This document shows positions 9,678-30,095 of a stretch of DNA of 42,228 nt, in pieces. The notes below the pieces were generated by a model. The model did no database searches and was not told where the DNA came from. It saw nothing but the letters and a program-made list of their open reading frames with translations. The translations under genes were made by a program, and so were the position numbers. The stretch's first letter is position 1. The number at the start of each line of letters is the position of its first letter. Source of the DNA: a virus (lineage: Duplodnaviria > Heunggongvirae > Uroviricota > Caudoviricetes); IMG/VR virus record IMGVR_UViG_648861009_000010. One strand, written 5' to 3'.

Positions 9678-9689
9678 GTGACATGTCAC
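9678..9689. promoter_or_regulatory. 12-bp perfect palindrome GTGACATGTCAC (copy 1 of 3)
   Basis: Exact 12-mer, also at 27819-27830 and 30084-30095; sits at a convergent gene junction. Confidence 0.45.
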
Positions 9690-9692
9690 GAC

Positions 9693-10106
9693 TTATAAAG
9701 ATGACTGATATTTTACAACTCTGTTCATGGCATCTTTTTTCACCGAGCTGATATCAGTTCTTATTTTGGCTTCGTCATTACTGCTTATCATGCTATTAAT
9801 TTTTTGCACTGACATGCCGTTTCTTTCAGCCATTGCACATACAGCAGCATCGTATGAAGAACTCGCTGCGATGGATATCACCTTGTTACACTCAAACACA
9901 GCACCTTCAGCAATATCAGATGCCGATGAGGCTGGCTTGGTATAAGTCTTGACGTAGTGATCAATACAACTATCCTTCGCCGTCTTGGCAAGAGAAAAAT
10001 CCATTTTAACTTTGTCGCAATATGCCTTATCAACACCGTCATAAACATCATAGGATGTCGAGCAAGCGGATATCAAAAATACCGATAACAGCAATAATTC
10101 CTTCAT
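9693..10106 (-). CDS. AT-rich phage lipoprotein; candidate superinfection-exclusion / lysogenic-conversion moron
   Basis: 137 aa; lipobox LISAC after a hydrophobic signal; SD AGGA 6 nt upstream; terminal gene after the ejection-protein genes; uses AGA for Arg. Confidence 0.6.
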   Translation of the reverse strand: MKELLLLSVFLISACSTSYDVYDGVDKAYCDKVKMDFSLAKTAKDSCIDHYVKTYTKPASSASDIAEGAVFECNKVISIAASSSYDAAVCAMAERNGMSVQKINSMISSNDEAKIRTDISSVKKDAMNRVVKYQSSL

Positions 10107-10115
10107 TGTTGTTCC

Positions 10116-12590
10116 TTATTGCGGAGTGACATCCTGAGGTCGCCACCAGTATGTCTGGTTAAACTCTTTCTTCGAACGTTGCTCCATTTTACGCAAATAG
10201 CCTGGTGAAAAATACTCCTGCATCTGATTAAAGATCATGTGATCGAGAGCCGCCTTCAAGTACCAGAGATTCGCACCAGGCATCAAACCTTTCCCAAGCT
10301 TAACCAGATCACCACCAGTCTGCTCATTCTTCCCTTCCACAGCATTTAACGGTATGCCCTGAGCAATCTTCACTACGTCATCAACCAGACCAGCTACCGG
10401 GCCAAGCATCGACGCTAGTGCGCCGCTCCCGTACCTGGTATGGTCAGAGAAAAGAAAATCACCATACAACCCTGCCCCACCACCTTTTAAAAATGCATTT
10501 ATCCAGAATTTAACCATGTTGTCACCGGTCATTTCTTTTGGATTTCTCCCATTAATAAGATCAGTAATCTGCATGGAAAGAGCACCAAGCATGGTTGTGC
10601 TTGCTAAAAACGTTGCTATATATGCCGCACGCCCACCAGCAGACGGCATCCCCATAGCTCTATGCCAGTGACGCATAACTACCGAGATAGGGAACGATTT
10701 AAACAGGAAAACACTTCTCGTTAATTCACCTTTCCATGTTCCACGCTGAAGACCAGACCCTACGAACATCTGTTCACGTGCGCCCGGTGTAATAACAGCC
10801 ATATCAACTTCTTCAGTTACGGCACCGAGCAGTTTACGCATTGCCTCAAATTTCACGCGTTCAGGCTCACCAAGATGTTTAACTGCTGAATCAGGGATAC
10901 GCATAATGCTTTCCGGTGTCAGCATCGTATTATTACCGTTCCCCCAGTCCTCCTGTTGCGCCAGCTTCCATACGCTCCAGTCTGTGTCAGTAATCCCTTT
11001 GCTTTTCAGGATACGAAAATCAGAGTCATCGAGGCTACGAAGGTCTGGTGTCCGTGACACTACTTCTCCCAGGCTTCCCATCATGGTTACGCCATAGGCG
11101 CGCTTGTGCGCATCTGACCATGCTGTAAGCCCACTGGCACGCATTACCGCCGTTGCCGCCCAACGAGACACAGACGGCCCCATATTATCCATCGCCCAGC
11201 GGTTAACGCTGCCAAGTAGAGATTCCATCGCCAGGCCAGCGCGGCGCGCCCGCGCAAGTTCTGTACGGTTCGTTGGGTCCATAGCTTCAAGCTGGTTGCG
11301 AAATAACTGGTTCATTGGAAGGTTGGTAACCTTCGCAGACAGATACATGGTTCCAAGATCAGAGAACGATGACAGCAACGCGGATCCGAGTCTGCTGGCA
11401 ACCAGCCAGTTGCGGATATTGTCAGACCATCGCGCGATGTGCGGATTCGCTACAGGCTGTGTTTTTCCGGAAATAAAGTTGTACAAGTTCTCTGTTTTGT
11501 TCGCCAGACGCTCGACGCTACCGGTTTTACTCGGGTTAGCTGTTGCCGTTTCTGCCTTAACCTGATCAAGAAGGGAGCGGAAAACATGATCGGGGTTTGG
11601 GCCATATGTTTCCACCAGCGCAATATCTTTACTGATACCTTCCAGGTGACCGACCATGATTTCCCATAGAGAGCGATCGCCATAAAGTTGCTGATATTGC
11701 AGATAGGAATCTGCATCTTTGAAATGTATCTGTCGTGATGCATTACCACGGTTAGCACGTGCTCCGGAAATTCGCATTCCGGTGTCAGTAAGCTTATTCA
11801 GCCCACCAGTAGCGATCGTGTTATAAGCCTCTCCAAGAAATGCAGACAACTCGGCATCGTTCATCAGTTGTCCATCGGCTCGGGTATAATATTTGCGATC
11901 CAGCTTACCTATAACATCGCTAACCCATTTATCTTTTGATACCGCCCCAACCTTTTCCATAGAATGATGTTGAGGGATCCCCCAGTTTTCGAGATAGCCA
12001 ATGTCCCCACCAGCATCATTAAACCGGCGGCGAAGTAGATCTGTCACTTCTCTCCACGCCTTAGCACCTTTTCTTGCTTTAGCATTGCCAGTATTTTGCC
12101 CTCGCATTTCATATACCAGGTCACGCACGCCCGCTTCATCTTCAAACAGGCCAAAAAAGCGAGGATCAACTGCTTCAAATGCCTCCTGCAATTGACTCAA
12201 TGCATAATCACGAGTGGCTTTTGTTCTGGATTCAACAGAGAGGAAATTCGATTTACCGTCTGCATTAAAAGCAATAGTACGGTTAAGAGCGCCAAGTTTC
12301 CCATCAGCCCCTTGATAGTTATTGATAAATTTATCCAATCTCTGACGTGCGGCTATAGTGAGGGCCACACGACGTTTCTTTAATGCCGCTTCTCGCTGTA
12401 ATTCTTCAGATGCCAATTGTGCTGCACGATACAACCGTTCTGATTCGGAAAGTTGTCGCCACGACATCTGGTCATCACGAGCAATGGAGCGCATATTTCG
12501 ATAAATGCGGTCTTCAATGTTCTGTATTTCTCGCGCCGTTAACGTGCGCTGCGCCGCCTGCTGGACCGCTTGTATACATTCCTGTCTCAT
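10116..12590 (-). CDS. Large internal virion / ejection protein (T7 gp16-like position)
   Basis: 824-aa ORF in the structural gene run, tightly packed with neighbours; function by position only. Confidence 0.5.
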   Translation of the reverse strand: MRQECIQAVQQAAQRTLTAREIQNIEDRIYRNMRSIARDDQMSWRQLSESERLYRAAQLASEELQREAALKKRRVALTIAARQRLDKFINNYQGADGKLGALNRTIAFNADGKSNFLSVESRTKATRDYALSQLQEAFEAVDPRFFGLFEDEAGVRDLVYEMRGQNTGNAKARKGAKAWREVTDLLRRRFNDAGGDIGYLENWGIPQHHSMEKVGAVSKDKWVSDVIGKLDRKYYTRADGQLMNDAELSAFLGEAYNTIATGGLNKLTDTGMRISGARANRGNASRQIHFKDADSYLQYQQLYGDRSLWEIMVGHLEGISKDIALVETYGPNPDHVFRSLLDQVKAETATANPSKTGSVERLANKTENLYNFISGKTQPVANPHIARWSDNIRNWLVASRLGSALLSSFSDLGTMYLSAKVTNLPMNQLFRNQLEAMDPTNRTELARARRAGLAMESLLGSVNRWAMDNMGPSVSRWAATAVMRASGLTAWSDAHKRAYGVTMMGSLGEVVSRTPDLRSLDDSDFRILKSKGITDTDWSVWKLAQQEDWGNGNNTMLTPESIMRIPDSAVKHLGEPERVKFEAMRKLLGAVTEEVDMAVITPGAREQMFVGSGLQRGTWKGELTRSVFLFKSFPISVVMRHWHRAMGMPSAGGRAAYIATFLASTTMLGALSMQITDLINGRNPKEMTGDNMVKFWINAFLKGGGAGLYGDFLFSDHTRYGSGALASMLGPVAGLVDDVVKIAQGIPLNAVEGKNEQTGGDLVKLGKGLMPGANLWYLKAALDHMIFNQMQEYFSPGYLRKMEQRSKKEFNQTYWWRPQDVTPQ

Positions 12591-12595
12591 TTAAT

Positions 12596-14398
12596 TTAAC
12601 CTCTCAAGAAACACGCCACAGCGACATCAAACAGGCTGGAATCCTGTATTGCCTGCTCACTTTCCCTGTTCGCTTCATCCAGTACTTCACGCGCGCTGCG
12701 CGATTGTGGATTACCATCATCATCCAGCACGGTGATTATCATGTCAGGTGATTCAAGCAGCGAGTCTTCAGCTATGCGCAGATCAACATCTCCTGCCTGA
12801 TCCGCCATCATTTTTTGTTCTGCCTGTTGCAATATTTTATCAGGCTCAAAAGGAGCTACTTCGTCTGGCGTCCTGACCTCTGCTGTTTTATAGAATGAAA
12901 CAGCCTGAGCATTAAGTTCACTTTCAGCCTGCTGTCTCCGTGTCAGTTCTGCTCGAGCTTCAAAAAACTGACCGCCAGGCTCATGCGGTGCCAACGCGTT
13001 ACGGGAAAATTCCAGGCGTTCTTGTGCCTGCCGGATTCGTTGGTCAATATCGCGAAGTCTGACCTGTTTATCTGATCGAGCACGAGACAAAGATTTACCG
13101 CTACCGGTTGGCTCTTCTGCAAGAATTTGTGCGCGCTGTTCAGTGAGATTTTCAATAATTCGTTGGCTATTAGCGATTTCAGACTGGTAAACCTGTCTAT
13201 CGCCACGCGGCAAAAGCTGCGCGGCCTGTTCTTCAAGCAACCGATTTTCTATAGCGCGCGCCGTTACTCCATCATCTACAGATGACAGAGCCTCATTAAC
13301 TGCCTGAGACAGCAGACTCTTGCGCCCAGGAATTTCACTGAAAGATGCAGACTCAACAATGCTGGCAACGTCTACAGGTCTCCCCTGGCTAACATCAGAC
13401 ATAGCTTTTCGCAGAGCCTGAATGTGAGAATTGCGCGAAAGCACGTTGATCGGCACGCCGGGCGCAATATCAATTTCAGCATGATGAGCGGCATTCGCCG
13501 CCAGTGCAGCATCAACATCAACTGGTGAAAAATTTGGTGCGCTTGTAGACTCGCCGCGAGAGTTAATAAATCTGCCGACACCACCAAACGCCACTCCAAG
13601 AACAGCATCAATAGCAATTGCCTGTCGATCCAACACATCATACTGGTTAGCCATTTCGCTATAGCCACCATCACGAAGCGTTTTTGCAGTAAGCCCACGC
13701 TGTGCCATACCGAACGCAATATTTGTACCTGCGGCATAGGCAATATCTGGCGTTGCACGTACTGCTGTTGCTGCGGCGCGTCGCACTGAACTTTCACCCG
13801 TCCGCGCAAGCTGGGCCGCCACACCTTCCGCCAGCGCACCACCAGCACGTAACCCGAGGCTCATAGGGATCAGTGTTCCGGCACCAGCAGTAATACCCTG
13901 CACTAATCCTGCTTCCTGCGCCGTCCTAAAATCAACACCCTGTGCTGTCAGCCGTTCAAACTCAGAAAAACCCTGTAGCGAAGTTACCGCCGCTGCACCT
14001 CCGACCGGACCACCGAGCGTTGTACCGACAACAGCCTGCCCGCCCATATCGAACAACCCATAAAGAACCTGCCCGGCGGTTCCGGTTGTCGCCGCATCAG
14101 GCGTCAGCCGCTTAACCTGCTGCTCTGCTAGTTTTCTCTGCTCGGCAATGTATGAAACTGAAGTGTCATTGAGCGAGGTGTTTTCGTTAACAAACTGAGC
14201 AATCGGGGATACGATTTTATCCATCCCTGCCCATAGCAACTGATCTGGCTTTGCCACCAGCCCGGAGTACAAACCAGACAATGCCGATCCTACAGCATTG
14301 TCGAAAAAACCAACATCGCTGTTAAAGCCAGCTGGATTTGATGCTGCTTCGTCAAGCTGCTGATTCTGGTTTACTGGATTAAGGCCAAAGTAACTCAT
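12596..14398 (-). CDS. Internal virion / ejection protein, Gly/Ala-rich
   Basis: 600-aa ORF; start overlaps the stop of the upstream gene; function by position only. Confidence 0.5.
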   Translation of the reverse strand: MSYFGLNPVNQNQQLDEAASNPAGFNSDVGFFDNAVGSALSGLYSGLVAKPDQLLWAGMDKIVSPIAQFVNENTSLNDTSVSYIAEQRKLAEQQVKRLTPDAATTGTAGQVLYGLFDMGGQAVVGTTLGGPVGGAAAVTSLQGFSEFERLTAQGVDFRTAQEAGLVQGITAGAGTLIPMSLGLRAGGALAEGVAAQLARTGESSVRRAAATAVRATPDIAYAAGTNIAFGMAQRGLTAKTLRDGGYSEMANQYDVLDRQAIAIDAVLGVAFGGVGRFINSRGESTSAPNFSPVDVDAALAANAAHHAEIDIAPGVPINVLSRNSHIQALRKAMSDVSQGRPVDVASIVESASFSEIPGRKSLLSQAVNEALSSVDDGVTARAIENRLLEEQAAQLLPRGDRQVYQSEIANSQRIIENLTEQRAQILAEEPTGSGKSLSRARSDKQVRLRDIDQRIRQAQERLEFSRNALAPHEPGGQFFEARAELTRRQQAESELNAQAVSFYKTAEVRTPDEVAPFEPDKILQQAEQKMMADQAGDVDLRIAEDSLLESPDMIITVLDDDGNPQSRSAREVLDEANRESEQAIQDSSLFDVAVACFLRG

Positions 14399-16908
14399 TG
14401 CGGAATATCTCCGGAGAATCTCTGACGCTTCTGTGTCAGATTAAGAACAACGGGAGAACCATCATCTTTCAGCAGATAACCAGTACCAAGTTTCACCAGG
14501 TACTGACTATCGCCGTAACTTTGCAAACCATACTGACCAGGCGGTGTTTTTATCCCGGAGCCGACAACTTGTTCATTCCAAGCCTGATTAACCTGCTTAT
14601 CGAATTGCTCTGCAGACATTCCCCACGGCAAAAGGACATTCCCCATTCCGTTATAGTCATGCACGCCACCTGTAGCTACGTTAACAGCCTGTTTCCAGAC
14701 ATCATTGTCAATTTCGCCTGATACCACGCCTTTTTTCGCCATCACACCAGCGTAATAGTCCTTTGCGATCTCGTATGCCATTGATGCCCCCTGAGCATCA
14801 CCAGCAAATGCATCCTTCACCATGTCAGAAAACTCAAGGCGGAGATCAGCATCTTTAGGCATCGGAATACCTTTCGCGTCATCAGTACCTTTACGAGCCG
14901 CCGCGCCAGCAAGAATTGTCTGCGCAGCGGTTTCAGGAGACACGGAAACATCCGGATTAAACCAGTTTTTTTCTGCCAAAATACCACCTGGCTTATCCAT
15001 CAGTATCCCGGCAACGGCAGCAGATGGAGCGTTGGCACTGATCTGCTGTAGTGCTGACATATACACCTGCCCACCACCAGTGCTCTGCCTGATGGTATCG
15101 AGATATGCTGCCTGTTGGGAAACGGGCGCATCACGAAAGAAAACACCGATCTGATTGGCCTCGTCTTTGGAAAAGAACGTCAGTGGAGTGCCATATGACT
15201 TAGCAAGGTCACTGACCTGAGTAGCACGCAAGGCAACGCTCTGTCCAAAGTTATCCTTATTGCTCATGTCGATAGGCTTTGCCTGTCCGGCGGCAAGAGA
15301 GAACTGTACAGGATCAGCCTGTCGCTGCTTTATCACCTGACTTGCAGCCGACACAACGTTGTCATAAAGAGCGGCTCGTGCCGCATAACCCTCCCCTGTC
15401 TCACCAGTATCCGGGCGTAATTGCTCAACATATGCTGTAATGCTGCTTGTCGGCATGTTGCGGAAAGAGCCTATATACTGTCCGGCGATTTGCGTATTTC
15501 TGAACTCGGTATATCGCAGGTTTCCTTCTCTGACTCCATAAGCTGCAATAAAATCAGCCTCACCAGGTGGGTTAGGAAATTCAACGCCACGCATATACGC
15601 AGCTGTCGCATCGCGAACCTGGCTGTCAATCATCGTTTTATATTCAGCCTGCTGCTGCCGACGCAGTTGATCCGCCTGTCGCATAAAACTTGCCTGCGCC
15701 TCAGGAGATGCCGCATCGAATGCTGCATTACCGGTATAGCGTTTGGTGTTGGTTGGAATTGTTGATAAACCAAGTGCTGCACTGACACCAGCAGTTAACT
15801 GCTGATCACTGTATGGCTGGCTACCGTTCTCATGATGGATAATGGCTGCACAAAGCGCCTTCAGGGTATCAGGATTAGATGCATCGAGAGGCTCATCAGC
15901 AGAAACGCCAAGTTGTTCGCACACTGCTTTGATATACGACATAGTGTCATTTTTATCAGTAGGCGGTGCCCAGCGATTAATTATCTCGCTGACGGTATCA
16001 ATACCCTGCCTCTGATACGACATCAGGTTCCGCCCTAATGCACGAATCCCGTGTTCAGGTGTTTCGAATTTAGCAAATCGACCATCATCACCGGTCTGGC
16101 CTACCCACGGATTAGTTTTGCTGTATTCGAGATTTCCTGGGTTATTGTTGCGTATGCCACGGGCACGCTCGGAAGAGTCACTATCTGCTACAGCACGGCG
16201 AGCTCCAGCAGCAGTATCACTTAACTCGCCATTACTTTGGATGAATGCGGTCGCATTGTTTGCCGACCACTGGGACAATGCAGCATCAGCAACCTTCTCT
16301 TTAAACTCGATTTTCTTGGCCTGGATTTGCTCGTCACTCCAGCCATGTGCAATGCCGTAATCCTCAATTTGCTGGAAAGTTTGCTTATTAGCCAATACGT
16401 ATGCGGCGTTGTCGCCATACAATGCTGCGGCATTTTTACCATTGTTCAGCAGCGTAACCTGAAACTGGCCTTCTTCGTAGGCATTTATTTGCCCTATCTC
16501 GTGCCGCCCTGCCTGCGTAGTGAACTGAATGCGCTGCTGCTGCGCCTGCTGCATGAAAGCATTACGAGCCTGTTCATCCGGCAGCGACATAGCCAGTTGT
16601 TCGACCTGAGCATCAAACTGCTGCGTATACTCCTGACCTTTTCCAATAGCATTTTTCCCTTTCAGGTTAAGCAAACCTGTTTCAGGGTTATTCAGCAGAT
16701 CGCTGCCTGTCTGACTGAGTTTAAGGGATGCCTCCTGAACCAAGGCAATATTGGCACGCTGTTTTTCCTGACCAAAAACATCAATAGCCTCTGCCCCTGC
16801 CCGAACAAAAGCATCACCAATACCTGGCTGAGAAAACGTCTGCAAGCCTGCTGACTGAACTCCACGGCTCTGAACCTGACGGCCGGATACTGTTGGTACG
16901 ACTGGCAT
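14395..16908 (-). CDS. Internal virion protein (T7 gp15-like position) with a conserved NNPGN-containing domain
   Basis: ATG at 16908 overlapping the upstream stop (TAATG) with SD GGAGG (the 862-aa track ORF starts further upstream); domain RGIRNNNPGNLEYSKTNPWVGQTGDDGRFAKFETPEHGIRALGRNLMSYQRQGIDTVSEII. Confidence 0.5.
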   Translation of the reverse strand: MPVVPTVSGRQVQSRGVQSAGLQTFSQPGIGDAFVRAGAEAIDVFGQEKQRANIALVQEASLKLSQTGSDLLNNPETGLLNLKGKNAIGKGQEYTQQFDAQVEQLAMSLPDEQARNAFMQQAQQQRIQFTTQAGRHEIGQINAYEEGQFQVTLLNNGKNAAALYGDNAAYVLANKQTFQQIEDYGIAHGWSDEQIQAKKIEFKEKVADAALSQWSANNATAFIQSNGELSDTAAGARRAVADSDSSERARGIRNNNPGNLEYSKTNPWVGQTGDDGRFAKFETPEHGIRALGRNLMSYQRQGIDTVSEIINRWAPPTDKNDTMSYIKAVCEQLGVSADEPLDASNPDTLKALCAAIIHHENGSQPYSDQQLTAGVSAALGLSTIPTNTKRYTGNAAFDAASPEAQASFMRQADQLRRQQQAEYKTMIDSQVRDATAAYMRGVEFPNPPGEADFIAAYGVREGNLRYTEFRNTQIAGQYIGSFRNMPTSSITAYVEQLRPDTGETGEGYAARAALYDNVVSAASQVIKQRQADPVQFSLAAGQAKPIDMSNKDNFGQSVALRATQVSDLAKSYGTPLTFFSKDEANQIGVFFRDAPVSQQAAYLDTIRQSTGGGQVYMSALQQISANAPSAAVAGILMDKPGGILAEKNWFNPDVSVSPETAAQTILAGAAARKGTDDAKGIPMPKDADLRLEFSDMVKDAFAGDAQGASMAYEIAKDYYAGVMAKKGVVSGEIDNDVWKQAVNVATGGVHDYNGMGNVLLPWGMSAEQFDKQVNQAWNEQVVGSGIKTPPGQYGLQSYGDSQYLVKLGTGYLLKDDGSPVVLNLTQKRQRFSGDIPQ

Positions 16909-17453
16909 TATAATCCTCCGGGTAATCTGGTTCCTGCTGCTGCCCCGATTGGCGCAGGGGTGCTTTGAGTAAACGGACTCCACGTCCCACCAAACATCTG
17001 GTACGCACCGTATGCCTTCAGAGGCGCAGTGAGCAATGTTGTTACTGCTCCCACATTCCCCTGTTTACGGGCTGAACTGGCTTCTGCTTTATAGTTGGCA
17101 GCCTGAACCTGATAACCGTAAGCCTCGCGTTGCGCGTTATTCACCGTCGTCAGAGAATCAAGAGCGCCAAACTGGGCAGTGTCGCCAAATATATCCAGCG
17201 CGTTACCTGTAGATAAATCAGCGCCGGTAGCCCCCATTGTCGCCGCCTGTGTACCAAGCCGCTGTCGGGTCTCTCTGCGCCGTTGCTCAGCTTCAGCGTT
17301 ACCTCTGTTTATTGCATCATTTGCCTGAGCTGTGGCTATATCTGCGTTCGCTTCTGCAACCTTCGAGGCATACTTTCCCTGTTGGTACTGGGTGTATGCC
17401 TGAATGCCACTCATGGCGAGCATTGCGCCACCAGCAATAACCGGATCGCACAT
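16908..17453 (-). CDS. Internal virion protein (T7 gp14-like position)
   Basis: 181-aa ORF, Ala/Gln-rich, translationally coupled to neighbours. Confidence 0.45.
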   Translation of the reverse strand: MCDPVIAGGAMLAMSGIQAYTQYQQGKYASKVAEANADIATAQANDAINRGNAEAEQRRRETRQRLGTQAATMGATGADLSTGNALDIFGDTAQFGALDSLTTVNNAQREAYGYQVQAANYKAEASSARKQGNVGAVTTLLTAPLKAYGAYQMFGGTWSPFTQSTPAPIGAAAGTRLPGGL

Positions 17454-20996: not shown

Positions 20997-21018
20997 TCAC
21001 CCCCGTTACCGTAAAGGG

Positions 21019-21476
21019 NNNNNNNNNNNNNNNNNNNNNNNNNNNNNNNNNNNNNNNNNNNNNNNNNNNNNNNNNNNNNNNNNNNNNNNNNNNNNNNNNN
21101 NNNNNNNNNNNNNNNNNNNNNNNNNNNNNNNNNNNNNNNNNNNNNNNNNNNNNNNNNNNNNNNNNNNNNNNNNNNNNNNNNNNNNNNNNNNNNNNNNNNN
21201 NNNNNNNNNNNNNNNNNNNNNNNNNNNNNNNNNNNNNNNNNNNNNNNNNNNNNNNNNNNNNNNNNNNNNNNNNNNNNNNNNNNNNNNNNNNNNNNNNNNN
21301 NNNNNNNNNNNNNNNNNNNNNNNNNNNNNNNNNNNNNNNNNNNNNNNNNNNNNNNNNNNNNNNNNNNNNNNNNNNNNNNNNNNNNNNNNNNNNNNNNNNN
21401 NNNNNNNNNNNNNNNNNNNNNNNNNNNNNNNNNNNNNNNNNNNNNNNNNNNNNNNNNNNNNNNNNNNNNNNNNNNN
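21019..21476. other. Assembly gap (458 N) within the head-tail joining genes
   Basis: N-run; the upstream minus-strand gene runs into it. Confidence 0.95.
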
Positions 21477-21611: not shown

Positions 21612-21629
21612 GCCGAGACGTGGCGTGCA

Positions 21630-21968: not shown

Positions 21969-22012
21969 TCCTGCAATAAAGGGGCCGAAGCCCCTTGTCT
22001 GATACGCGAGGC

Positions 22013-22348: not shown

Positions 22349-22358
22349 CGATATCCCC

Positions 22359-22796
22359 TTAGCCGGTTACTTTGGAGCGGATCGGATACGGCGTATTTGC
22401 ATCAACATCCAGGTTAATGCCGGAAGTGAATTTGCCGGCCGTTAGTGGGCCAGTTGCGACGGAGTAGTTAACACGCAGATATCGCTGAACACCGGCAGGC
22501 ACCTTTGCAGAAACAACTCGTTTACCTGCTGTCAGGGTAGCCTTTGCCAGTGCTCCACTATCATAAATAGTGGACCATGAGCTGTTATTCTCACTCGTCT
22601 GCAACTGGATGTTTACAGTTGCCTCACCACTTGCCGTGGCGGCTTCGTTAACCAGCGCCCAAAACTCAAGCGGGTAACCCACGCCGATATCGCGACGATT
22701 TCCATCAATTGGACCTAGATCGATTACGTCAGTAGAAGCCGCGGTATCAGTTACCGCCTGTGCTTCGGAGAACATCAACAGTTTGTCGGTGATCAT
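22359..22796 (-). CDS. Hypothetical head protein
   Basis: 145-aa ORF immediately downstream of the major capsid gene. Confidence 0.5.
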   Translation of the reverse strand: MITDKLLMFSEAQAVTDTAASTDVIDLGPIDGNRRDIGVGYPLEFWALVNEAATASGEATVNIQLQTSENNSSWSTIYDSGALAKATLTAGKRVVSAKVPAGVQRYLRVNYSVATGPLTAGKFTSGINLDVDANTPYPIRSKVTG

Positions 22797-22847
22797 CTTC
22801 TTTCTCCATTAGTGGGTCTGTTACGACCCACTGGTTAATAACAGGCG

Positions 22848-23840
22848 TTACACCACACGGGCTTCTGTTTCCAGAAGCGCATCAGTTTCACGGATTGGTA
22901 CACCACGGAATGAAGTCCACCACTCGCCTTCTGTCTCTTTTACGCTGATCGCCAGAGATGTTTTCTCCAGAGATTGCAGATCAAGAGCCTGGCCTACAGT
23001 GCGGTTCATGTAGAACACCGGGCGACCCATTCCACGGTTTGGAATGCGATGCAGTGCTTTAACCATCAACTTCGCAATATTTGCGGCAGAGGAAGGTTCT
23101 GAAAGATTGCTGACATCGATGTTTGCAATGCGAACAACATAACGCCAGTCACGCAGAGCAAGTCCGTTGTCCCATTTGTAATGGGTGCGATAGCCTTCGT
23201 ACTTGCCGCCATTAGCATCTTCCAGTGTCACCTGGCCTTTATCTTCCATCTGGATGCCAGCCTTCTGCCCTTTCGGGAAGATGCCATGCACGGTGTTTTC
23301 GCCCCACACCACTAACCAGATTGAGGTGTTATCTGTACCCGTGCCACCAGCATCAATGATGTTCTGAGCATTACCCGCAGACAGGCTGGAATAGCGGGAG
23401 GACAGTCCCATAAACTGCTGAGGGTTAACGCTGGAATCACCATAAAACAGTGTCTGCGCCATCTGCTGATTCATCGCTTCAATAAATGCGCGGTCTTCAG
23501 ACAGGCGGAATTCGGCGGTATTACCGTTCAGATCAGCCAGTGACTTATCGACTTCAGCATAGGTTTCCAGCATGCCAACGTAATCGGTGACCTGCACTGT
23601 GGTTGATTTGCTTGGCTGTACACCATAGTTCAGCAAACGCCAGGTAGCTGAAGGTAAACCAGAACGAATGGTGGTTCGGTGTCCGGTAGGAAGGTTCCCT
23701 TCGACAAAAGGCATATCCTGAAGGATCGGGTTAGTTTGACCGAGAAGCTCGATAATCTTATCGACTTTCCCGTTTGGATCGACGCGCTTACCCCAGTCAG
23801 CCAGCGTTAGCGCAGTTAAGCCTTTAACAGCCATTGTCAT
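22848..23840 (-). CDS. Major capsid protein
   Basis: 330-aa ORF directly after the scaffold gene in portal-scaffold-capsid order. Confidence 0.7.
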   Translation of the reverse strand: MTMAVKGLTALTLADWGKRVDPNGKVDKIIELLGQTNPILQDMPFVEGNLPTGHRTTIRSGLPSATWRLLNYGVQPSKSTTVQVTDYVGMLETYAEVDKSLADLNGNTAEFRLSEDRAFIEAMNQQMAQTLFYGDSSVNPQQFMGLSSRYSSLSAGNAQNIIDAGGTGTDNTSIWLVVWGENTVHGIFPKGQKAGIQMEDKGQVTLEDANGGKYEGYRTHYKWDNGLALRDWRYVVRIANIDVSNLSEPSSAANIAKLMVKALHRIPNRGMGRPVFYMNRTVGQALDLQSLEKTSLAISVKETEGEWWTSFRGVPIRETDALLETEARVV

Positions 23841-23848
23841 TTCCTCTC

Positions 23849-24550
23849 TTATTTGCCATAGAGCACTTCGGCCGCACTACGCTGGCCTTCATTACCACCG
23901 GTGACCATGCCATCTTCAGACATCGCCTTTCCGATTTTCACGAACGTTTTGACCAGATCAGGGTGATTACCCAGCCCGGTGGTGTTCAGATATTCTTTGA
24001 GTTCAGGTGTCCCGAACTGGTCAAGCGCACGCTGTGCGGCGCTAAGGTTAGAAATCAACTTGTCGCCACCGATTTCTTTGTCAGCTTTTACATCCGCAGC
24101 CCACTGCTCGGTTGTTTTCTGCCAGGCTTCTACCTGGCGCTGCTGAACACCTGCCAGAATCTTCGGATAAGCATCAACCAGCTTTTGCGCTTGCTCGTTG
24201 GTCAGGTTTAGTTCTCGCGCCACCGGCTCGAATTCCTTCAACGCTTCTGTATCCAGCTCTACGCCTTCGGCAGCCTGAAACTCGTACTTCTCAGGCGCAC
24301 CCTCTGGTTTATCGCCGTCCTTTTTTTCATCCTGCTTATCGTTTTCAGGATTTTTGTCATCAGCAGGTTTATCGCCATCAGCAACAGGTTGTGACTTATC
24401 ACCTTCCGGTTGTGATGGATCACCAACTGGAGCATGGTTATCACCTGCAGGCGCTGACGGTTCTGACGCAGCCGGAGCTGCTCCACCATCGACTGGTTGC
24501 TCATTGCAAAGACGGCGATACAGCAAACGCTCAAATAAATTCATGATCAC
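23849..24550 (-). CDS. Scaffolding protein
   Basis: 233 aa, very acidic low-complexity N-terminal region (PEGDKSQPVADGDKPADDKNPENDKQDEKKDGDKPEG) then helical region; between portal and capsid. Confidence 0.65.
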   Translation of the reverse strand: MIMNLFERLLYRRLCNEQPVDGGAAPAASEPSAPAGDNHAPVGDPSQPEGDKSQPVADGDKPADDKNPENDKQDEKKDGDKPEGAPEKYEFQAAEGVELDTEALKEFEPVARELNLTNEQAQKLVDAYPKILAGVQQRQVEAWQKTTEQWAADVKADKEIGGDKLISNLSAAQRALDQFGTPELKEYLNTTGLGNHPDLVKTFVKIGKAMSEDGMVTGGNEGQRSAAEVLYGK

Positions 24551-24843
24551 TCCTGTTCACTGGCCTCTTTGGCCATCTTCAAATACTGTTCAGGGCAATG
24601 CGCCATAACGCGCTGAAACAGTTCCAGCGCCAGATTGCGTTGCCCCTCATTAAATGCCATTGCCATAGCGTCCATCGGTGAGATAGCGGAAAACACACGG
24701 CCTTTCTCCAGCACCGACCAGACAACGCGACGCCCCTGTTCACTGCTCATGACAAAGCGAATGTCATCAATTTCACGCTGCGCCATGTCACGTTGCTTAC
24801 GGGCGTTTTCTTCTTTCAGTTGATCGTCTTCGTAATCTGTCAT
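24547..24843 (-). CDS. Small head-assembly protein, unknown function
   Basis: 98-aa ORF translationally coupled between portal and scaffold. Confidence 0.5.
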   Translation of the reverse strand: MTDYEDDQLKEENARKQRDMAQREIDDIRFVMSSEQGRRVVWSVLEKGRVFSAISPMDAMAMAFNEGQRNLALELFQRVMAHCPEQYLKMAKEASEQE

Positions 24844-26519
24844 TGTGATTGCCCACCCTGACCACTAACTGCATTCGCCATAGCTGACAACACACTCGGA
24901 TCCGAAGTTTTAGCTTCGCTTAGCGTCTTGGCCCCCTGTGCCGCCGCCATCCCCATCGCCATCATTTGTTGCTGCTGTTGTTGCTGTGCCCGTTGCTGGC
25001 GAGCCTGCTCAACCTGTTCCTGCGGAACAATGACGGTTGGAGACACTCCGGACATATCAGCGAATGCATCGATCGCCTGATCAACGTTGAGTTTGTCGAG
25101 AGCTTCTGGTTTCGCTTGCGCAAGTTGACCAATGAAGTTAACCGTGGACGCCAGACTGGACAGGCCGATAGACTTCTGCGCCTGAGCCATGACGGAAATG
25201 TATTCGACCTTCAGGGGCATGCCTTCCATCGCGTCAGGCGGTGGCGGCAGCATGTTTTTGCGCACCATCATCGAGAAAGCGCGGTCAATGAGAGGATTAA
25301 GACATTCGTCGTTCAGACGCTCCAGAACCGGCCCCAACATCAGAAGTTTTTCTTCTTTCATTTCGATCACCGCTTCAACAGGCATCGAGCGGGTATTGAT
25401 GTTCTGCAACATCATGAACAGATCGACAAAGTAGGCGCTGTTAATGATTTGACGAGTGTCCTGAATGTCTGCCACCAAATCTGCTGTACTGGGGTTAACC
25501 AGATAAGCAGGCCTGAAGCCATCCTGACCAGTAATCTGATCGATATACGTGATGTCGCCAGGAAGAAGGGAGGCGCGCTGATTCTTGAGGGAAGTCGGAG
25601 CAACCATCGGCGGATTGGTGGCTTTATCAATCAACTGCGACTTGCGCTTCTGGAGAAGCTGCAATGCCTTAACAGGTCCAAGCGCCAGCATACCCGGGCA
25701 TGATGATCCATAAACATCTTCGCCGTTAACTTCCCAGCGCGGAGCCATAATTGGAAACTCATCGAATCCGGACTCACGCAACAACTTGTCGTTATCGCCA
25801 CCAACCTCGTAATAAACCGATTTGAATGGCTTGTTCTTGCTATCCAGCTTCGATGTATCGCGGTCAATGTTCGGGTAAACCGAATGCATCACTTCAATCC
25901 ACTTCTCGTAGGTGCCGCTTTCCCACATGCTTTTTACGGATTCGCTGACGTTATTTAGCCCGAACTCCTGAACAAGCTGACGAACAGTCATAGAGAACTT
26001 GCGAAAACAGGTGTCCACACTGCCACGAGGTGAGTTAGCTAGGTAGTAACTGCCTATCGGGAATGGCATTGTGCGAATGATGTCCTCGTCATCCTCCAGC
26101 ACTGCCATTGCACCAGTGCTGTATGTGCCGAGGCTTCCGTATAACTGCGGCAGAGACTGATAGAGATTCGAGTTATTGAACATATCGTTCATGCGGTTCT
26201 GCACCGCCTCAAGCCACAACTTAACAGGGCCATAATCCATCATTTCAGGATCTGGCGTAGCCAGGCGAAACCACGGACGCGCGGGGCTTGTGATGCCTGA
26301 CATCATGCCGCTGGCGAGAGTGCGCGCCGCCATAGTCCCGGTCGAATCAATAATGCGTGTATTGCGTCGATCGTTACGGTTGACCTCAGAAGTCAGAAAG
26401 CGGGAACCACGTGGGTTGATGTAATCACTCAACTCGCGCCAGTGCGGCTCGAACGACTGACGCTCGCTTTCAAGTTGTGCGAACTGTTTGTTCAATCGCT
26501 CTTTAGTTGTTTCCGCCAT
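24840..26519 (-). CDS. Portal (head-to-tail connector) protein
   Basis: 559 aa; position after terminase and before scaffold; sequence style of T7 gp8-type connectors. Confidence 0.75.
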   Translation of the reverse strand: MAETTKERLNKQFAQLESERQSFEPHWRELSDYINPRGSRFLTSEVNRNDRRNTRIIDSTGTMAARTLASGMMSGITSPARPWFRLATPDPEMMDYGPVKLWLEAVQNRMNDMFNNSNLYQSLPQLYGSLGTYSTGAMAVLEDDEDIIRTMPFPIGSYYLANSPRGSVDTCFRKFSMTVRQLVQEFGLNNVSESVKSMWESGTYEKWIEVMHSVYPNIDRDTSKLDSKNKPFKSVYYEVGGDNDKLLRESGFDEFPIMAPRWEVNGEDVYGSSCPGMLALGPVKALQLLQKRKSQLIDKATNPPMVAPTSLKNQRASLLPGDITYIDQITGQDGFRPAYLVNPSTADLVADIQDTRQIINSAYFVDLFMMLQNINTRSMPVEAVIEMKEEKLLMLGPVLERLNDECLNPLIDRAFSMMVRKNMLPPPPDAMEGMPLKVEYISVMAQAQKSIGLSSLASTVNFIGQLAQAKPEALDKLNVDQAIDAFADMSGVSPTVIVPQEQVEQARQQRAQQQQQQQMMAMGMAAAQGAKTLSEAKTSDPSVLSAMANAVSGQGGQSQ

Positions 26520-26533
26520 TTCAATGACTCCGG

Positions 26534-26740
26534 TTACTGACCAAGCAGCGTTTTACCGCTGGTCTTAGCGGTTGATGTGTCGCCCTGAGAACCGGTAAGC
26601 AGCGTAGAACTACGACCAGCAGCAGCGCGACGGCGACGAGTTTCTTCGTCGCGGGCATCAACAACGGCGGCATCCTGCTCCTGTGGTGCTGCCTGAACTT
26701 CTGGTGTTGCAGGCACTGATGGTGAGCTACCCATGCACAT
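26534..26740 (-). CDS. Small low-complexity protein upstream of portal
   Basis: 68 aa, SD GGAG 8 nt upstream, coupled to portal; preferred over the overlapping 79-aa frame. Confidence 0.4.
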   Translation of the reverse strand: MCMGSSPSVPATPEVQAAPQEQDAAVVDARDEETRRRRAAAGRSSTLLTGSQGDTSTAKTSGKTLLGQ

Positions 26741-26830
26741 ATCAATGACTCCGTACGCAATTAAATTATTACCAATTTAACCATATATGATTTATTTATC
26801 GTAGATAGTTGACATTTAACGCGCGAATTA

Positions 26831-26845
26831 TTACCTTTCAGGTAA
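26831..26845. promoter_or_regulatory. Operator-like palindrome TTACC-TTTCA-GGTAA
   Basis: Perfect arms; identical to the 7298 site; between the head operon start and the tRNA region; TTGACA hexamer 18 bp upstream on the + strand. Confidence 0.55.
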
Positions 26846-27167
26846 CTAAAGAGTTCATTCCGGTTACTAACCTGACTGGCCTGTCGTTAAATTGAACAGG
26901 TGGAGTGAGCTTTTATTTTGAGCAGTACGGCGTATGGCACATGCGACGATAGCGGTCTGGATACGTTTAAGTGGCACCCTCCCTTGCTCGGGCAAACGAA
27001 CCAGGTAGCCGGAATGTGCAAGTCGAGCGGTTTTATTCCGCGCACGGGGATTCACCATCCCGGCGATTCGGTGTGACGCCTCGGAAGAGACGAGGGTACA
27101 ACGATGAGAGCATTTATGGAGCCGCGACAAAGTGTGGCGCCTTAACAGGCTAAGTGCTCTCAGCGTT

Positions 27168-27244
27168 GTGGCATTAGCTCAGTTGGACAGAGCAACCGCC
27201 TTCTAAGCGGTTGGTCGCAGGTTCGAATCCTGCATGCCACGCCA
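27168..27244 (+). tRNA. tRNA-Arg (anticodon UCU), phage-encoded
   Basis: Cloverleaf folded by hand: acceptor GTGGCAT/ATGCCAC, D-stem GCTC/GAGC, anticodon stem ACCGC/GCGGT with loop CTTCTAA, T-arm GCAGG-TTCGAAT-CCTGC, discriminator G, encoded CCA. Confidence 0.85.
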
Positions 27245-27287
27245 GAATCACGCCTAAGGACCGTGATACCAGAAGTTCCAGGTGCTT

Positions 27288-27330
27288 GGCGGTGATGGTT
27301 TCCCTTGAAGGACTATCACCGCCCTTTTTA
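27288..27330 (+). terminator. Terminator-like hairpin downstream of the tRNA
   Basis: 9-bp stem ggcggtgat/atcaccgcc followed by CTTTTTA. Confidence 0.5.
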
Positions 27331-27407
27331 CAGCAGGACGCCATTGCGATGACTTCATGCTGTAAACCCGTACAGCCACGGAAGGCATAACTCATTGCTT
27401 CCAGTTC

Positions 27408-27431
27408 GCCCGGTTCGCCGGGCATTTTTTT
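27408..27431 (+). terminator. Rho-independent terminator
   Basis: gcccgg-ttcg-ccgggc hairpin followed by ATTTTTTT. Confidence 0.75.
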
Positions 27432-27442
27432 AAGGTGAGATT

Positions 27443-27814
27443 ATGAACGACCAGCAAATCGAAAAAGAAATCGTTGAGAAAGGCAAAACGGCACCGCGCG
27501 TTACGCCAGACCATATCGAAGGCATTATTGCTCAGGAGGCATATTTCACAGCAGAAGATGGTGCCTTTGGCAAAGCCATAAAAGCGAAACATACTGGCGG
27601 AGAGGTAAACTACCAGCCGCACGAATCACTTTCTCTGCTGACGTTCTGCGTCCTGGTGCTGCGCAACGGCTTCACCGTCACCGGAGAGAGCGCCTGTGCA
27701 AGCCAGGAAAACTTTGATGCAGAAATTGGTCGGAAGATTGCCCGGCAGAATGCTGTAAACAAAATCTGGATGCTCGAAGGTTACTTGCTGAAGCAGAAGC
27801 TAAGCGAGCAATAA
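27443..27814 (+). CDS. Hypothetical phage protein (possibly N4 Gp49 / Sf6 gp66-like family)
   Basis: 123-aa ORF with SD AAGGTGAG; the only plus-strand gene in the packaging/head region; family assignment is recollection only. Confidence 0.5.
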   Translation: MNDQQIEKEIVEKGKTAPRVTPDHIEGIIAQEAYFTAEDGAFGKAIKAKHTGGEVNYQPHESLSLLTFCVLVLRNGFTVTGESACASQENFDAEIGRKIARQNAVNKIWMLEGYLLKQKLSEQ

Positions 27815-27818
27815 CACC

Positions 27819-27830
27819 GTGACATGTCAC
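27819..27830. promoter_or_regulatory. 12-bp perfect palindrome GTGACATGTCAC (copy 2 of 3)
   Basis: Exact 12-mer right after the stop of ORF 27443-27814. Confidence 0.45.
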
Positions 27831-27833
27831 AAA

Positions 27834-27861
27834 CAGCCAGCCGATGAGCTGGCTTTGTTTT
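27834..27861. terminator. Bidirectional terminator hairpin between convergent ORF 27443-27814 and TerL
   Basis: agccagc-cgatga-gctggct stem-loop followed by TTGTTTT. Confidence 0.6.
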
Positions 27862-27904
27862 ATCCTCATCAGAGGATATCAACGACATTATCCCCACCAG
27901 CGGA

Positions 27905-29380
27905 TTAAGCATATGGATCGTAATCTGTGATGGCCTTGCCTTGCTGGTTCTGCTGCCCGGGAATTCGCAGACGCTTCGACACAGGGAACGCAAACGTCAG
28001 CAGTAGCGCATCGCCTTTACCAGGAGAACGCCCAAGCCGCTCCTTGATATCTTCCTTCGGTTCGATAACGATTTTACCGTCCACTCGAACTTTGTACTCT
28101 GCCGCAGACAGGTCGTCCGCTGTTTCCTGGTCATCCAGCATGCCGCCCAGCCTCAGCCATGTCTTACATGAGTTGAACATCTCCCCACGCTTGTTAAGCA
28201 TCTGCGGGTCAGTGGACGCACCGCCGAACGGAACAAGTTGCCATGTACGTCCCCAGCCATCACCGATTGACTTCAAACCGGTTCCGTAACCGAAGTCGAT
28301 GAACACCGCGTCAGCCTGATACTGGTCTTCAAAGTCAGCGATACGCTTCGCCATAATCAGATCGTCGGTTGTCTTGTTGCCAGTCCATAGCACCTTACTG
28401 TGCAACCCCTGCCGCAGGTATATCACAGCGTCATCAACGCCTGAGTATGCCGGGTCAACACCGATTATCACCGGAGCATGCGCCACCTGCGCAGCGGTTA
28501 CCACCCGTTTCATTGCCTCATCAGTAAGACCGGTAGGGATAAACTGCAATTCAGATGCATCAGGGAATATGCCGCGCACACGGATTTTAACGAAGTCGCT
28601 GTCTTCCCCGTAGTCATCAACCCATTTCTGCAACTGCTGTTTGTTAGTGCCTTCCACCGTCCGGCTGTCAATCTGCGCAGTTTTCCAGCGGTGTTTATAT
28701 TTGCGGAAACATTCGCGGAAACGCCCGGTGTTACGTGTAGGGTTTCCGAATGCCACCCAGATAATCTCAGTGTCTTCGTCCGTCAGCGCACCCTCTGCTA
28801 CCTCCCACACCAGATCGGCAATGTTGGATGCTTCGTCGAATACCACGATGATGCGTTTGCGCTCGTTGTGTAGTCCGGCGAATGCCTCAGTGTTGTGCTC
28901 AGACCAGGGGATTGCGTCAGCTCGCCACCGCTTGTCGTGCCCAGGGTCATTGCTGTACATCGCGGTAGCGGTACAGGTAAACCAGTCTTTCGTGATAGCA
29001 AGGTTCGACCACTTGATAATTTCCGGCCAGGTCTTCGTTCGTAGCTGGTTGTCGGTGTTGGCGGTCACCACGACCTTACAATCCTCGCAAGTGGACATGC
29101 CCCAGTTGATCAGCATTGAGATGAATGCGGATTTACCAATACCGTGACCCGAAGCGCGTGCCAGCATAAGCGGCTGATAGCGCGTCTCTGGATTCTGCAG
29201 GTGATCACGTATCTCTCGGAACGCATCAGCCTGCCACTGACGTGGGCCGGTAGCATGTGCCAGTTCAGTCCCCTCTTCCCCCCACGGGAACGCATAGAGG
29301 GCATAGCCAAGCGGATCGTGAGTGAACCCTGCAATATCCTCGATCAACTGCTCTTCAGGAGATAACGCTGTATCTGTCAC
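27905..29380 (-). CDS. terL: Terminase large subunit
   Basis: 491 aa; P-loop-like ASGHGIGKS; acidic nuclease-domain motifs; overlaps TerS by 4 nt. Confidence 0.85.
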   Translation of the reverse strand: MTDTALSPEEQLIEDIAGFTHDPLGYALYAFPWGEEGTELAHATGPRQWQADAFREIRDHLQNPETRYQPLMLARASGHGIGKSAFISMLINWGMSTCEDCKVVVTANTDNQLRTKTWPEIIKWSNLAITKDWFTCTATAMYSNDPGHDKRWRADAIPWSEHNTEAFAGLHNERKRIIVVFDEASNIADLVWEVAEGALTDEDTEIIWVAFGNPTRNTGRFRECFRKYKHRWKTAQIDSRTVEGTNKQQLQKWVDDYGEDSDFVKIRVRGIFPDASELQFIPTGLTDEAMKRVVTAAQVAHAPVIIGVDPAYSGVDDAVIYLRQGLHSKVLWTGNKTTDDLIMAKRIADFEDQYQADAVFIDFGYGTGLKSIGDGWGRTWQLVPFGGASTDPQMLNKRGEMFNSCKTWLRLGGMLDDQETADDLSAAEYKVRVDGKIVIEPKEDIKERLGRSPGKGDALLLTFAFPVSKRLRIPGQQNQQGKAITDYDPYA

Positions 29381-29973
29381 TGATTACCATCCTGACGTTC
29401 TTTGAGTCGCTTCCTGGCTGCCGCTATGCGATCAGCAATTGTCACATTCACATTAACATCCAGGCGTTCTTTGAATGCGTTGACGTCGACGTGCTTACCA
29501 ATCAGTTCGAGGTTCTTCACCTTGTCAGGCCATTTAATTTTTTTGAGGATTGTCTCTATCGAATCCTCGTTCATGTTCATGATGGTCGATGACAGATCAA
29601 AGCCACTAAGCGTAGTGCGCCAGATTTTCGGCCACTCGCGGATTGGCTTAAGGCTCCCATCGTCGTTGAGGATATCAATCACGTCCATCTGGTCGATCTC
29701 CACCAGGCGCATGAGAACGTAATCGGCACTGACGCGCATTCGTTTGTTGCGCTCCTCCATCAACTCGGCAATCCGTTTTTGAATGCGTTCATCGCGCATC
29801 ATGACACTGGCTTTAACTGCCGCTGTATTTGGGGAGAATCCTGCGTTAATCGCTGCCTGAGTCTGGTTTTCAGGCGTTTTGATGTATGACTGGCAATAAG
29901 CCTCCTGCATTGCGGTTAGTGGCTTAAATTGCGTTGATTTGCGTTTATAGGTTTTAGGTTCAGCAGGCATCAT
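29377..29973 (-). CDS. terS: Terminase small subunit
   Basis: Start taken at the internal ATG at 29973 (MMPAEPKTYKRK...) with SD AGGGTGG; the track ORF extends to a TTG at 30051; coupled to TerL. Confidence 0.65.
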   Translation of the reverse strand: MMPAEPKTYKRKSTQFKPLTAMQEAYCQSYIKTPENQTQAAINAGFSPNTAAVKASVMMRDERIQKRIAELMEERNKRMRVSADYVLMRLVEIDQMDVIDILNDDGSLKPIREWPKIWRTTLSGFDLSSTIMNMNEDSIETILKKIKWPDKVKNLELIGKHVDVNAFKERLDVNVNVTIADRIAAARKRLKERQDGNQ

Positions 29974-29990
29974 AACCACCCTGGTAATTG

Positions 29991-30005
29991 TTACCGTTGT
30001 GGTAA
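29991..30005. promoter_or_regulatory. Operator-like palindrome TTACC-GTTGT-GGTAA just upstream of terS
   Basis: Perfect arms, 18 bp upstream of the ATG at 29973; an everted GGTAA-TTG-TTACC overlaps at 29983-29995. Confidence 0.5.
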
Positions 30006-30083
30006 TAGTACCATGCAAAATAAAGCCGCCATAGTTGGCGGCAGTATTCAAAACCCATCAAATTCATCATGCATAATCTACTC

Positions 30084-30095
30084 GTGACATGTCAC
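30084..30095. promoter_or_regulatory. 12-bp perfect palindrome GTGACATGTCAC (copy 3 of 3)
   Basis: Exact 12-mer about 110 bp upstream of the terS start, overlapping the stop of the preceding gene. Confidence 0.45.

Follow-up and report, generated by a model that had tools for sequence, protein, structure and literature searches.

A 12-bp palindrome repeated at transcription-unit ends in a Uetakevirus prophage and its link to the phrog_536 regulator family

The 42,228-nucleotide stretch of viral DNA analysed here (IMG/VR record IMGVR_UViG_648861009_000010; hereafter, the window) contains three exact copies of a 12-bp palindrome, GTGACATGTCAC, at positions 9678-9689, 27819-27830 and 30084-30095, and no other exact copy. 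This raises the question of what the palindrome does at these three places and which protein is connected with it. The window represents a phiV10/epsilon15-like podovirus prophage of E. coli (genus Uetakevirus) with its late genes on the minus strand, and its late region is 96-97% identical to phiv142-3, to phiV10 and to many E. coli chromosomes. The three copies are called box 1 (30084-30095), box 2 (27819-27830) and box 3 (9678-9689) below. It was found that the box is tied to the gene of a small regulator of the phrog_536 family in many unrelated phages, and an effect on RNA polymerase at the ends of transcription units is tentatively proposed.

The box and the phrog_536 regulator

The original prediction held that three identical palindromes in a genome of this size would hardly arise by chance, and this was borne out: none of 100 dinucleotide-preserving shuffles contained even one GTGACATGTCAC. 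Masked N runs aside (1542-1930, 5608-5748 and 21019-21476, where open reading frame (ORF) calls and motif counts are blind), it was the sole repeated palindromic 12-mer in the window. Allowing up to two mismatches added only the sites at 24391 and 24780 in the window, which was not above chance. The half-site GTGAC/GTCAC alone was not enriched in the window (63 observed vs 82 expected), and the complete dyad was therefore considered the special part. Its general form is GTGAC-NN-GTCAC. This motif was absent from six stretches of the E. coli K-12 chromosome totalling 255 kb, in which approximately 18 copies would be expected at the phage density; frequency in the host had been proposed as a check on the palindrome. 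The same sample contained two genuine 13-bp matS sites, both in the 1.70-1.75 Mb stretch.

The gene that accompanies the box is located at 30092-30430 on the minus strand. Its product, the small zinc-ribbon protein of the original prediction, belongs to phrog_536, a family whose sole label is "transcriptional regulator" and which includes epsilon15 gp49, N15 gp46, ZF40 gp22 and PhiV10p55. The family comprises 205 clusters at 50% identity, nearly all of them stand-alone proteins of approximately 110-130 amino acids.

Conservation in related phages, the second proposed check, was also observed. In epsilon15 (approximately 77% DNA identity; 76% for the regulator protein) and in Tyrion, three exact copies were found at homologous places with diverged flanks (2142, 19517 and 39612 in epsilon15; 2702, 20377 and 41755 in Tyrion, the last across the record ends). 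phiV10 harbored two exact copies, and its third, GTGACATGTTAC, had one mismatch and spanned the record junction. The start of the phiV10 record in the middle of box 1 was considered as a real cos or pac end and rejected; the record just begins after the stop of gene 55.

Phages of other types, chosen by homology of the regulator protein, were found to contain the box as well. The tailed phage ZF40, which has a tail-sheath gene, carried three copies of GTGACATGTCAC, one of them just past gp22. Two of the ZF40 boxes flank the cI region at distances of approximately 0.7-1.1 kb, where each falls within the second gene of an operon, one running leftward and the other rightward. The linear plasmid prophages N15 and phiKO2 each carried three copies of GTGACTGGTCAC: one on the stop of gene 46/gp45, a second within repA, and a third that separates the repA operon from the promoter of the antirepressor. 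In N15, this third copy is the box at 28550, past the end of the repA operon; its centre is approximately 66 bp upstream of the predicted start of the antirepressor promoter, Pa. Vibrio K303 had three boxes, one of them 19 nt upstream of terS, and one perfect 13-bp matS-type site. In a Yersinia P2-like phage, a single box, GTGACGCGTCAC, was found on the regulator stop, and no box was present in Aeromonas 13AhydR10PP, whose protein is 30% identical. In total, the complete genomes picked by protein homology contained 22 boxes in approximately 390 kb vs approximately 0.4 expected; the hosts found were Enterobacterales, Vibrio and Aeromonas.

A larger set of prophage loci was collected with the regulator protein as the only query and one genome per species, which gave 33 loci from more than 20 genera of Enterobacterales. 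GTGAC-NN-GTCAC was present in 32 of them, and the set contained 50 boxes in 612 kb vs approximately 0.6 expected. In 21 of the 33 loci, the TGA stop of the regulator gene coincided with box positions 2-4, and what followed downstream varied: a terminator, a gene with a LexA box, or a directly coupled gene. The loci lacking a box at the regulator stop still had boxes 0.2-9 kb away. Greedy clustering of the box contexts chained most sites into one cluster and was uninformative.

In several phages, a box lay within a gene and was then always framed as xGT GAC ATG TCA Cxx (x-D-M-S-x); such genes included those of cII-like activators, of phrog_2479 proteins and of a Q-like protein, the last with the box in its first codons. 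Among 35 distinct cII-like sequences, the third-codon-position identity was 0.97-1.00 over the box codons vs approximately 0.6 in the flanks; in 69 phrog_2479 sequences, the corresponding values were 0.86-1.00 and approximately 0.4. As judged from these alignments, the boxes within these two unrelated genes stand out locally by the conservation of their synonymous sites, which indicates selection at the nucleotide level. Because 75 of the 80 cII-like homologues carried the box, this family was not a clean test of presence and absence and was used only for synonymous-site conservation. In one phrog_2479 clade, the peptide V-D-M-S-K was encoded as GTT GAT ATG TCA AAA, so that there was no box, and the regulator gene was found within 10 kb in none of the 16 loci. 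Most box-bearing phrog_2479 loci with enough flanking sequence had the regulator within 10 kb. Since the boxless sequences form a single clade, this result represents one evolutionary event.

The IMG/VR collection was also scanned with CGTGACATGTCACA. Approximately half of the resulting loci were unrelated chance matches, and the set was kept out of the conservation statistics because it had been selected by the motif. Four high-GC phages in it had arrays of GTCAC/GTGAC half-sites in a replication-type gene (L021, 10700-10900; L040, 700-800; L050, 3120-3190; L069, 1850-1960). These arrays look like origin iterons that have nothing to do with the regulator family, and their capture by the 14-mer scan was fortuitous.

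Two further arrangements were seen around the regulator stop. A Providencia prophage (L154) had two exact boxes 32 bp apart, at 10355 and 10387, the second embedded in a 22-bp perfect palindrome, CTATCGTGACATGTCACGATAG. In many relatives (L004, L005, L022, L033, L131, L132 and L137), a gene preceded by a perfect LexA-box-like dyad (TACTGT-N8-ACAGTA) was inserted between the box and terS.

On these comparative grounds, it may be firmly concluded that the box is a selected cis-element tied to the phrog_536 protein and that the protein of the window implicated by all of this evidence is the one encoded at 30092-30430.

The window regulator matched no model in Pfam or NCBIfam. Among 74 diverse members of the family, two touched curated ribbon-helix-helix (RHH) models, RHH_5 (E 0.013) and RepB-RCR_reg (E 0.028), both below threshold. 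An AlphaFold2 model made from a shallow alignment had a mean predicted local distance difference test score (pLDDT) of 63 and gave nothing in a Foldseek search; it was replaced by a model from the alignment of the 74 members, with a pLDDT of 90.1. In the latter, a basic N-terminal helix spans residues 5-19, in which R8 and R13 hardly vary; residues 20-29 are extended, and helices follow at 30-42 and 52-74. Next comes a cysteine knuckle, in which C79 and C82 are invariant and C99 is almost invariant, and the chain closes with a short C-terminal helix. From this model, the regulator is confidently predicted to have the RHH fold (beta-alpha-alpha, with dimerisation through the N-terminal strand) and, in addition, a four-cysteine zinc knuckle. 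A deep profile of the family gave marginal matches in the PDB, over residues 49-111, to proteins of the DksA/TraR zinc-finger family (YbiI, E 0.0098; TraR, E 0.026-0.028). Given such marginal matches, the apparent DksA/TraR likeness of the C-terminal half is taken as a lead only.

The two central base pairs of the box were found to covary with the predicted beta-strand of the protein. The strand xK[LIFV]E[LIV]x[LV]D accompanied the centre AT, INE[IV]R[AV]RLE of the Yersinia P2-like phages accompanied GC (7/7), TTRRDWVLE of N15 and phiKO2 accompanied TG/CA (6/6), and IQELRLKVS of Vibrio K303 accompanied AC and GC. The basic arm RK..QR.R and the outer GTGAC were constant across all loci compared. 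Covariation of strand and centre together with a constant arm and constant outer GTGAC is expected of direct recognition, and we infer physical binding: the box is probably bound as double-stranded DNA by an RHH dimer.

Box position and the proposed action on RNA polymerase

The three boxes of the window and the features that adjoin them are as follows.

30092-30430, minus strand: regulator gene, 112 amino acids, phrog_536 (PhiV10p55/epsilon15 gp49/N15 gp46 family)
30084-30095, no strand: box 1, GTGACATGTCAC; its minus-strand positions 2-4 are the TGA stop of the regulator gene
30017-30042, minus strand: intrinsic terminator 1 (GCCGCC-AACTAT-GGCGGC and a T run; stem 30042-30025), between the regulator gene and terS
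27835-27864, plus strand: intrinsic terminator of the gp49/66-like unit (stem 27835-27854), starting 4 nt past box 2
27819-27830, no strand: box 2, at the convergent junction of terL (minus strand) and the unit of the tRNA and gp49/66-like genes (plus strand)
27443-27814, plus strand: gp49/66-like gene, PF13876; stop 4 nt before box 2
9693-10106, minus strand: last gene of the late structural operon, phrog_8691; stop 3 nt before box 3
9678-9689, no strand: box 3, where the late structural operon (minus strand) ends against the convergent antirepressor operon under C4 RNA control (plus strand)
9650-9677, minus strand: intrinsic terminator of the late operon (AGGCCGC-TTTC-GCGGCCT and a T run; stem 9677-9660), directly abutting box 3

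Thus, the placement of the copies at operon boundaries beside terminators had been described accurately. The regulator gene is the final ORF of the early-right operon. Terminator 1 lies 41 nt downstream of box 1 and is followed by an operator-like dyad, TTACC-N5-GGTAA, and by terS and terL; box 1 is located approximately 115 nt before the probable terS ATG (approximately 29974), in agreement with the copy upstream of terS in the original prediction. The 12-mer alone had a predicted folding energy of -1.2 kcal/mol, equal to that of shuffled sequences, and according to the predicted folds, the adjacent terminator hairpins are built mainly from flanking sequence. The box as part of an intrinsic terminator hairpin was not supported, as it forms no stable GC-rich stem of its own. 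No known RNA family was found at any box by an Rfam scan.

Several observations concern the surroundings of the boxes. A mini-ORF of eight codons (M-H-D-E-F-D-G-F-stop; 30048-30074, minus strand) is located between box 1 and the terminator and ends 5 nt before the stem. It is kept with synonymous changes as MRDEFDGF (L135) and MTDEFDGF (L134), is absent from epsilon15-type sequences, and could be a leader peptide affecting the terminator. The longest terS ORF (29377-30051, minus strand) and the phiV10 RefSeq annotation use a TTG start, with which both the operator and the terminator hairpin would become coding sequence; an ATG at approximately 29974, which matches the epsilon15 start, is more plausible. 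Ten copies of TTACC-N5-GGTAA were found in the window (7298, 7678, 8745, 26831, 29991, 34070, 34132, 36475, 37187 and 37249). Copies precede terS, the portal-side late unit, the tail-spike unit and the immunity region, and this dyad is annotated as repressor sites in the epsilon15 record. At box 2, the plus-strand unit consists of a tRNA gene (Rfam, 73 bits; 27168-27241) and the gp49/66-like gene; the minus-strand ORF 27174-27425 is probably not a gene because the tRNA gene overlaps it. Upstream of the Ant gene (7947-8672, plus strand), Rfam matches to isrK (67.7 bits; 7729-7805) and to C4 antisense RNA (66 bits; 7830-7913) were found on the plus strand. This arrangement is a P1/N15-type RNA-controlled antirepressor operon in a Uetakevirus prophage, and the operon ends at box 3; in N15, isrK/C4 elements are likewise found downstream of one of the boxes.

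Other elements of the window are a strong Rfam match to the Hfq-binding small RNA STnc490 (146 bits; 2146-2269, minus strand), an iteron-like repeat, CCCAAAAACGGGAT, with 24-bp spacing and three to four copies at 35378-35520, and a tandem ATACCA hexamer array at 36010-36032. The latter two may mark a replication origin or a regulatory region.

The position of the boxes argues for an action on transcription units rather than on initiation. The box is predicted to be the operator of the regulator 30092-30430, and the role that we tentatively favour, short of an even chance, is that of a boundary element, or roadblock, on RNA polymerase at unit ends. The regulator would be made as the last product of the early-right operon, and a dimer would occupy each box, with the basic N-terminal arm reading the invariant outer GTGAC arms and the RHH beta-sheet reading the central base pairs. 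The bound protein would then act on transcribing RNA polymerase at unit ends, most likely as a roadblock reinforcing the adjacent terminators. At box 1, the early operon would be insulated from the late operon; at box 2, terS-terL from the convergent tRNA/gp49-like unit; and at box 3, the late operon from the antirepressor operon that faces it. Other phages would use the protein at boxes within early genes and thereby shut those operons down. We infer the direction of the effect as well: a stop or insulation of read-through is favoured because the boxes of the window lie at unit ends by terminators and because of the box places in N15 and ZF40.

A number of points weigh against this reading. 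The pairing of box and regulator rests on co-occurrence, covariation and fold, and the covariation comprises three or four clades only and is confounded with phylogeny. A terminator-like hairpin was found within 45 nt at 41% of the unique box contexts vs 4.6% of random positions, an association that is not independent because homologous Uetakevirus sites dominate it. A roadblock just before a terminator would be partly redundant with the terminator. Box 2, when read in the late direction on the minus strand, comes after the hairpin and the sequence GTTTG, and a protein bound there would sterically stall the polymerase before the hairpin was complete. Some boxes lie near promoters (in N15, the centre is at approximately -66 relative to Pa) and box 1 supplies a -35-like GTGACA, with which control of initiation is compatible. 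Finally, the order of gene, box, terminator and late genes would fit an antiterminator equally.

Alternative roles of the box

The best-surviving alternative, although a rather unlikely one, is that the box is a loading site for antitermination, comparable to lambda Q/qut. The protein on box 1 would modify the polymerase so that early transcription continued into the late genes, and boxes 2 and 3 would re-load it. As in the lambda Q module, the early-right operon closes with the regulator gene, after which come the DNA site, a terminator and the late (packaging) genes; several phage types show this order. The stretch from terminator 1 to terS contained no good sigma-70 promoter; however, the TTACC-N5-GGTAA dyad before each late unit suggests that these units have promoters of their own. 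Convergent inserts separate boxes 2 and 3 from the late units downstream of them, and a polymerase resistant to terminators could pass through such inserts; but a polymerase moving in the late direction would meet the hairpin at box 2 before the box itself, and in many phages the ribosome-binding site of the next gene directly follows the box, with no terminator. No similarity to the Q family was detected among antiterminator models of Pfam, NCBIfam or PHROG. The site, unlike qut, is not demonstrably within a promoter and has extra copies at later unit ends and inside early genes, and the phrog_536 protein coexists with Q-like proteins that N15, phiKO2 and ZF40 already encode. The original prediction had proposed a late-activator site. 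For this phage, such a role is tenable; as a general role it is unlikely, given the Q-like regulators of these three phages and the separate small regulator at the ogr position in the Yersinia P2-like phage.

The marginal matches of the C-terminal half to the polymerase-binding proteins YbiI and TraR, the only near-significant sequence matches in the PDB, also bear on antitermination. The region resembles DksA/TraR proteins in its long helix followed by CxxCG..LP....G...C. It differs in that the last cysteine of the second CxxC pair is absent (C-W-V-T), the reference finger being CxxC-x17-CxxC, and no match to Pfam zf-dskA_traR was found. Because its long helix forms part of the RHH fold (as helix B), that helix could not enter the secondary channel of the polymerase in the manner of the TraR helix.

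The remaining proposals are less likely than either a boundary element or antitermination. According to the first, which appears improbable, the regulator is an ordinary regulator of initiation, the boxes are operators of nearby promoters, and it is by coincidence that they lie at gene ends. Repression by binding at promoters is typical of RHH proteins. A promoter-like GTGACA-18-CATGAT (9/12) was found at box 1, with the box as the -35 element, and GTGACA-17-TAAATT was found at the box of epsilon15-type sequences; the distance of the N15 box from Pa has been given above. Nevertheless, the putative box 1 promoter is weak and has no conserved counterpart in other phage types, and boxes 2 and 3 showed nothing promoter-like. 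Numerous boxes are located within ORFs (cII-like, phrog_2479 and repA) or between genes that are translationally coupled. The regulator resembles P22 Arc and Mnt, CopG and AmrZ as a small protein, presumably dimeric, with a short symmetric DNA site, and it shares with them a link to antirepressor operons: the ant operon under C4 control has its end at box 3, and in N15 one box precedes the ant promoter. Classical RHH operators, however, overlap promoters upstream of the regulated genes, whereas the boxes are commonest at the regulator's own stop and otherwise lie inside ORFs or against terminators. The extra C-terminal zinc module and the failure of any Pfam RHH model to reach threshold are further differences from known RHH repressors.

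A structural or organisational role similar to that of MatP/matS, in which the protein would bridge or mark sites, or the sites would meet host MatP/MukBEF, and transcription would not be the target, is regarded as equally doubtful. The matS consensus is the 13-bp GTGACRNYGTCAC (PMC6907758). The outer arms GTGAC...GTCAC of this short palindrome are identical to those of the box, and the phage sites likewise occur in few dispersed copies, approximately three per genome, some of them intragenic. Enterobacterales, Vibrio and Aeromonas, the hosts found here, are MatP-bearing groups; the K-12 sample contained two genuine matS sites, and Vibrio K303 had a matS-type site besides its boxes. In contrast to matS (13 bp, spacer RNY), the box is 12 bp with the spacer NN at all three sites of the window, which gives a different half-site spacing, and the boxes concentrate strongly at gene ends and terminators, which is not required of a purely structural site. 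Homology of the regulator to MatP was rejected at the sequence level (BLASTP E 1.3; hhalign probability 0.1-0.3%), and only the generic RHH core could be superposed. MatP consists of an N-terminal four-helix bundle, an RHH domain and a C-terminal coiled coil; the model of the phage protein has neither the bundle nor the coiled coil and instead has a basic arm and the four-cysteine zinc knuckle. The binding site of SlmA, GTGAGTACTCAC, likewise measures 12 bp and is palindromic, but positions 5 and 8 are G and C there and C and G in the box, so that the box would not fit the SlmA consensus.

An element acting at the RNA level seems very improbable. The self-complementary 12-mer of one transcript would pair with the same 12-mer in other phage mRNAs, or the protein would bind RNA. 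Every box is transcribed, boxes 2 and 3 are directly 5' of terminator hairpins, like the seed of a small RNA derived from a 3' untranslated region, some boxes include a start codon or directly adjoin a ribosome-binding site, and the copy in the N15 repA mRNA is the exact complement of the other two. On the other hand, the 12-mer folds no better than shuffled sequences, the boxes track the protein gene even away from its 3' end, and the perfect DNA dyad symmetry, the RHH fold and the covariation of beta-strand and centre point to recognition of double-stranded DNA.

Least of all do we expect a terminase (pac) site, a sequence acted on by a restriction-modification or other DNA-modifying enzyme, or a relic of recombination where modules meet. 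In favour of these roles, terS-terL lies between boxes 1 and 2, one Vibrio K303 box lies close to terS, all three boxes have variable inserted genes as neighbours, and homology with relatives is lost near box 3. Against them, the same box and protein occur in N15 (12-base cohesive ends annotated), in phiKO2 and in the P2-like phage, with boxes in repA, in the antirepressor leader and at regulator gene ends, far from terminase genes; methyltransferase content is not common to the box-bearing phages, in which the regulator is the constant partner; and a relic would explain neither the exact conservation in coding regions nor the covariation with the protein. The first two of these roles had been put forward in the original prediction and are not upheld.

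Meaning for the phrog_536 family

The motif is annotated in none of the phage records retrieved, and the epsilon15 record is otherwise dense with repressor, IHF, RNase III and terminator features. Full-text literature searches for the 12-mer and its variants gave nothing relevant, and the Uetakevirus ZX5 paper, in its accessible part, deals with the repressor, the antirepressor and the integrase only. The findings thus point to an undescribed pair of regulator and site, present in many unrelated temperate phages and located mostly at transcription-unit ends. The system can be described as an RHH regulator with its operator, distinguished by the unusual placement of the operator and by the extra zinc module.

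A bolder view, to which we give rather little weight, has two forms. A DNA-tethered RHH protein with a DksA/TraR-like zinc module might act on elongating polymerase at operon ends, at terminators and in early genes, as sequence-programmed checkpoints of termination or antitermination. Alternatively, the pair might be a phage counterpart of matS that interfaces with host chromosome organisers.

If the pairing of box and regulator is true, it would give a function and a defined DNA target to a family labelled only "hypothetical" or "transcriptional regulator" in public records, and this family is present in well-studied phages (epsilon15, phiV10, N15, phiKO2 and ZF40) and in many enterobacterial prophages. 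The regulon would be small and its sites unusual: the regulator's own stop codon, terminators at convergent junctions, and positions inside cII-like, repA and Q-like genes. This placement suggests control of elongation or insulation of transcription units rather than control of initiation, and in the annotation of these prophages the box would be a useful landmark for the boundaries of transcription units.

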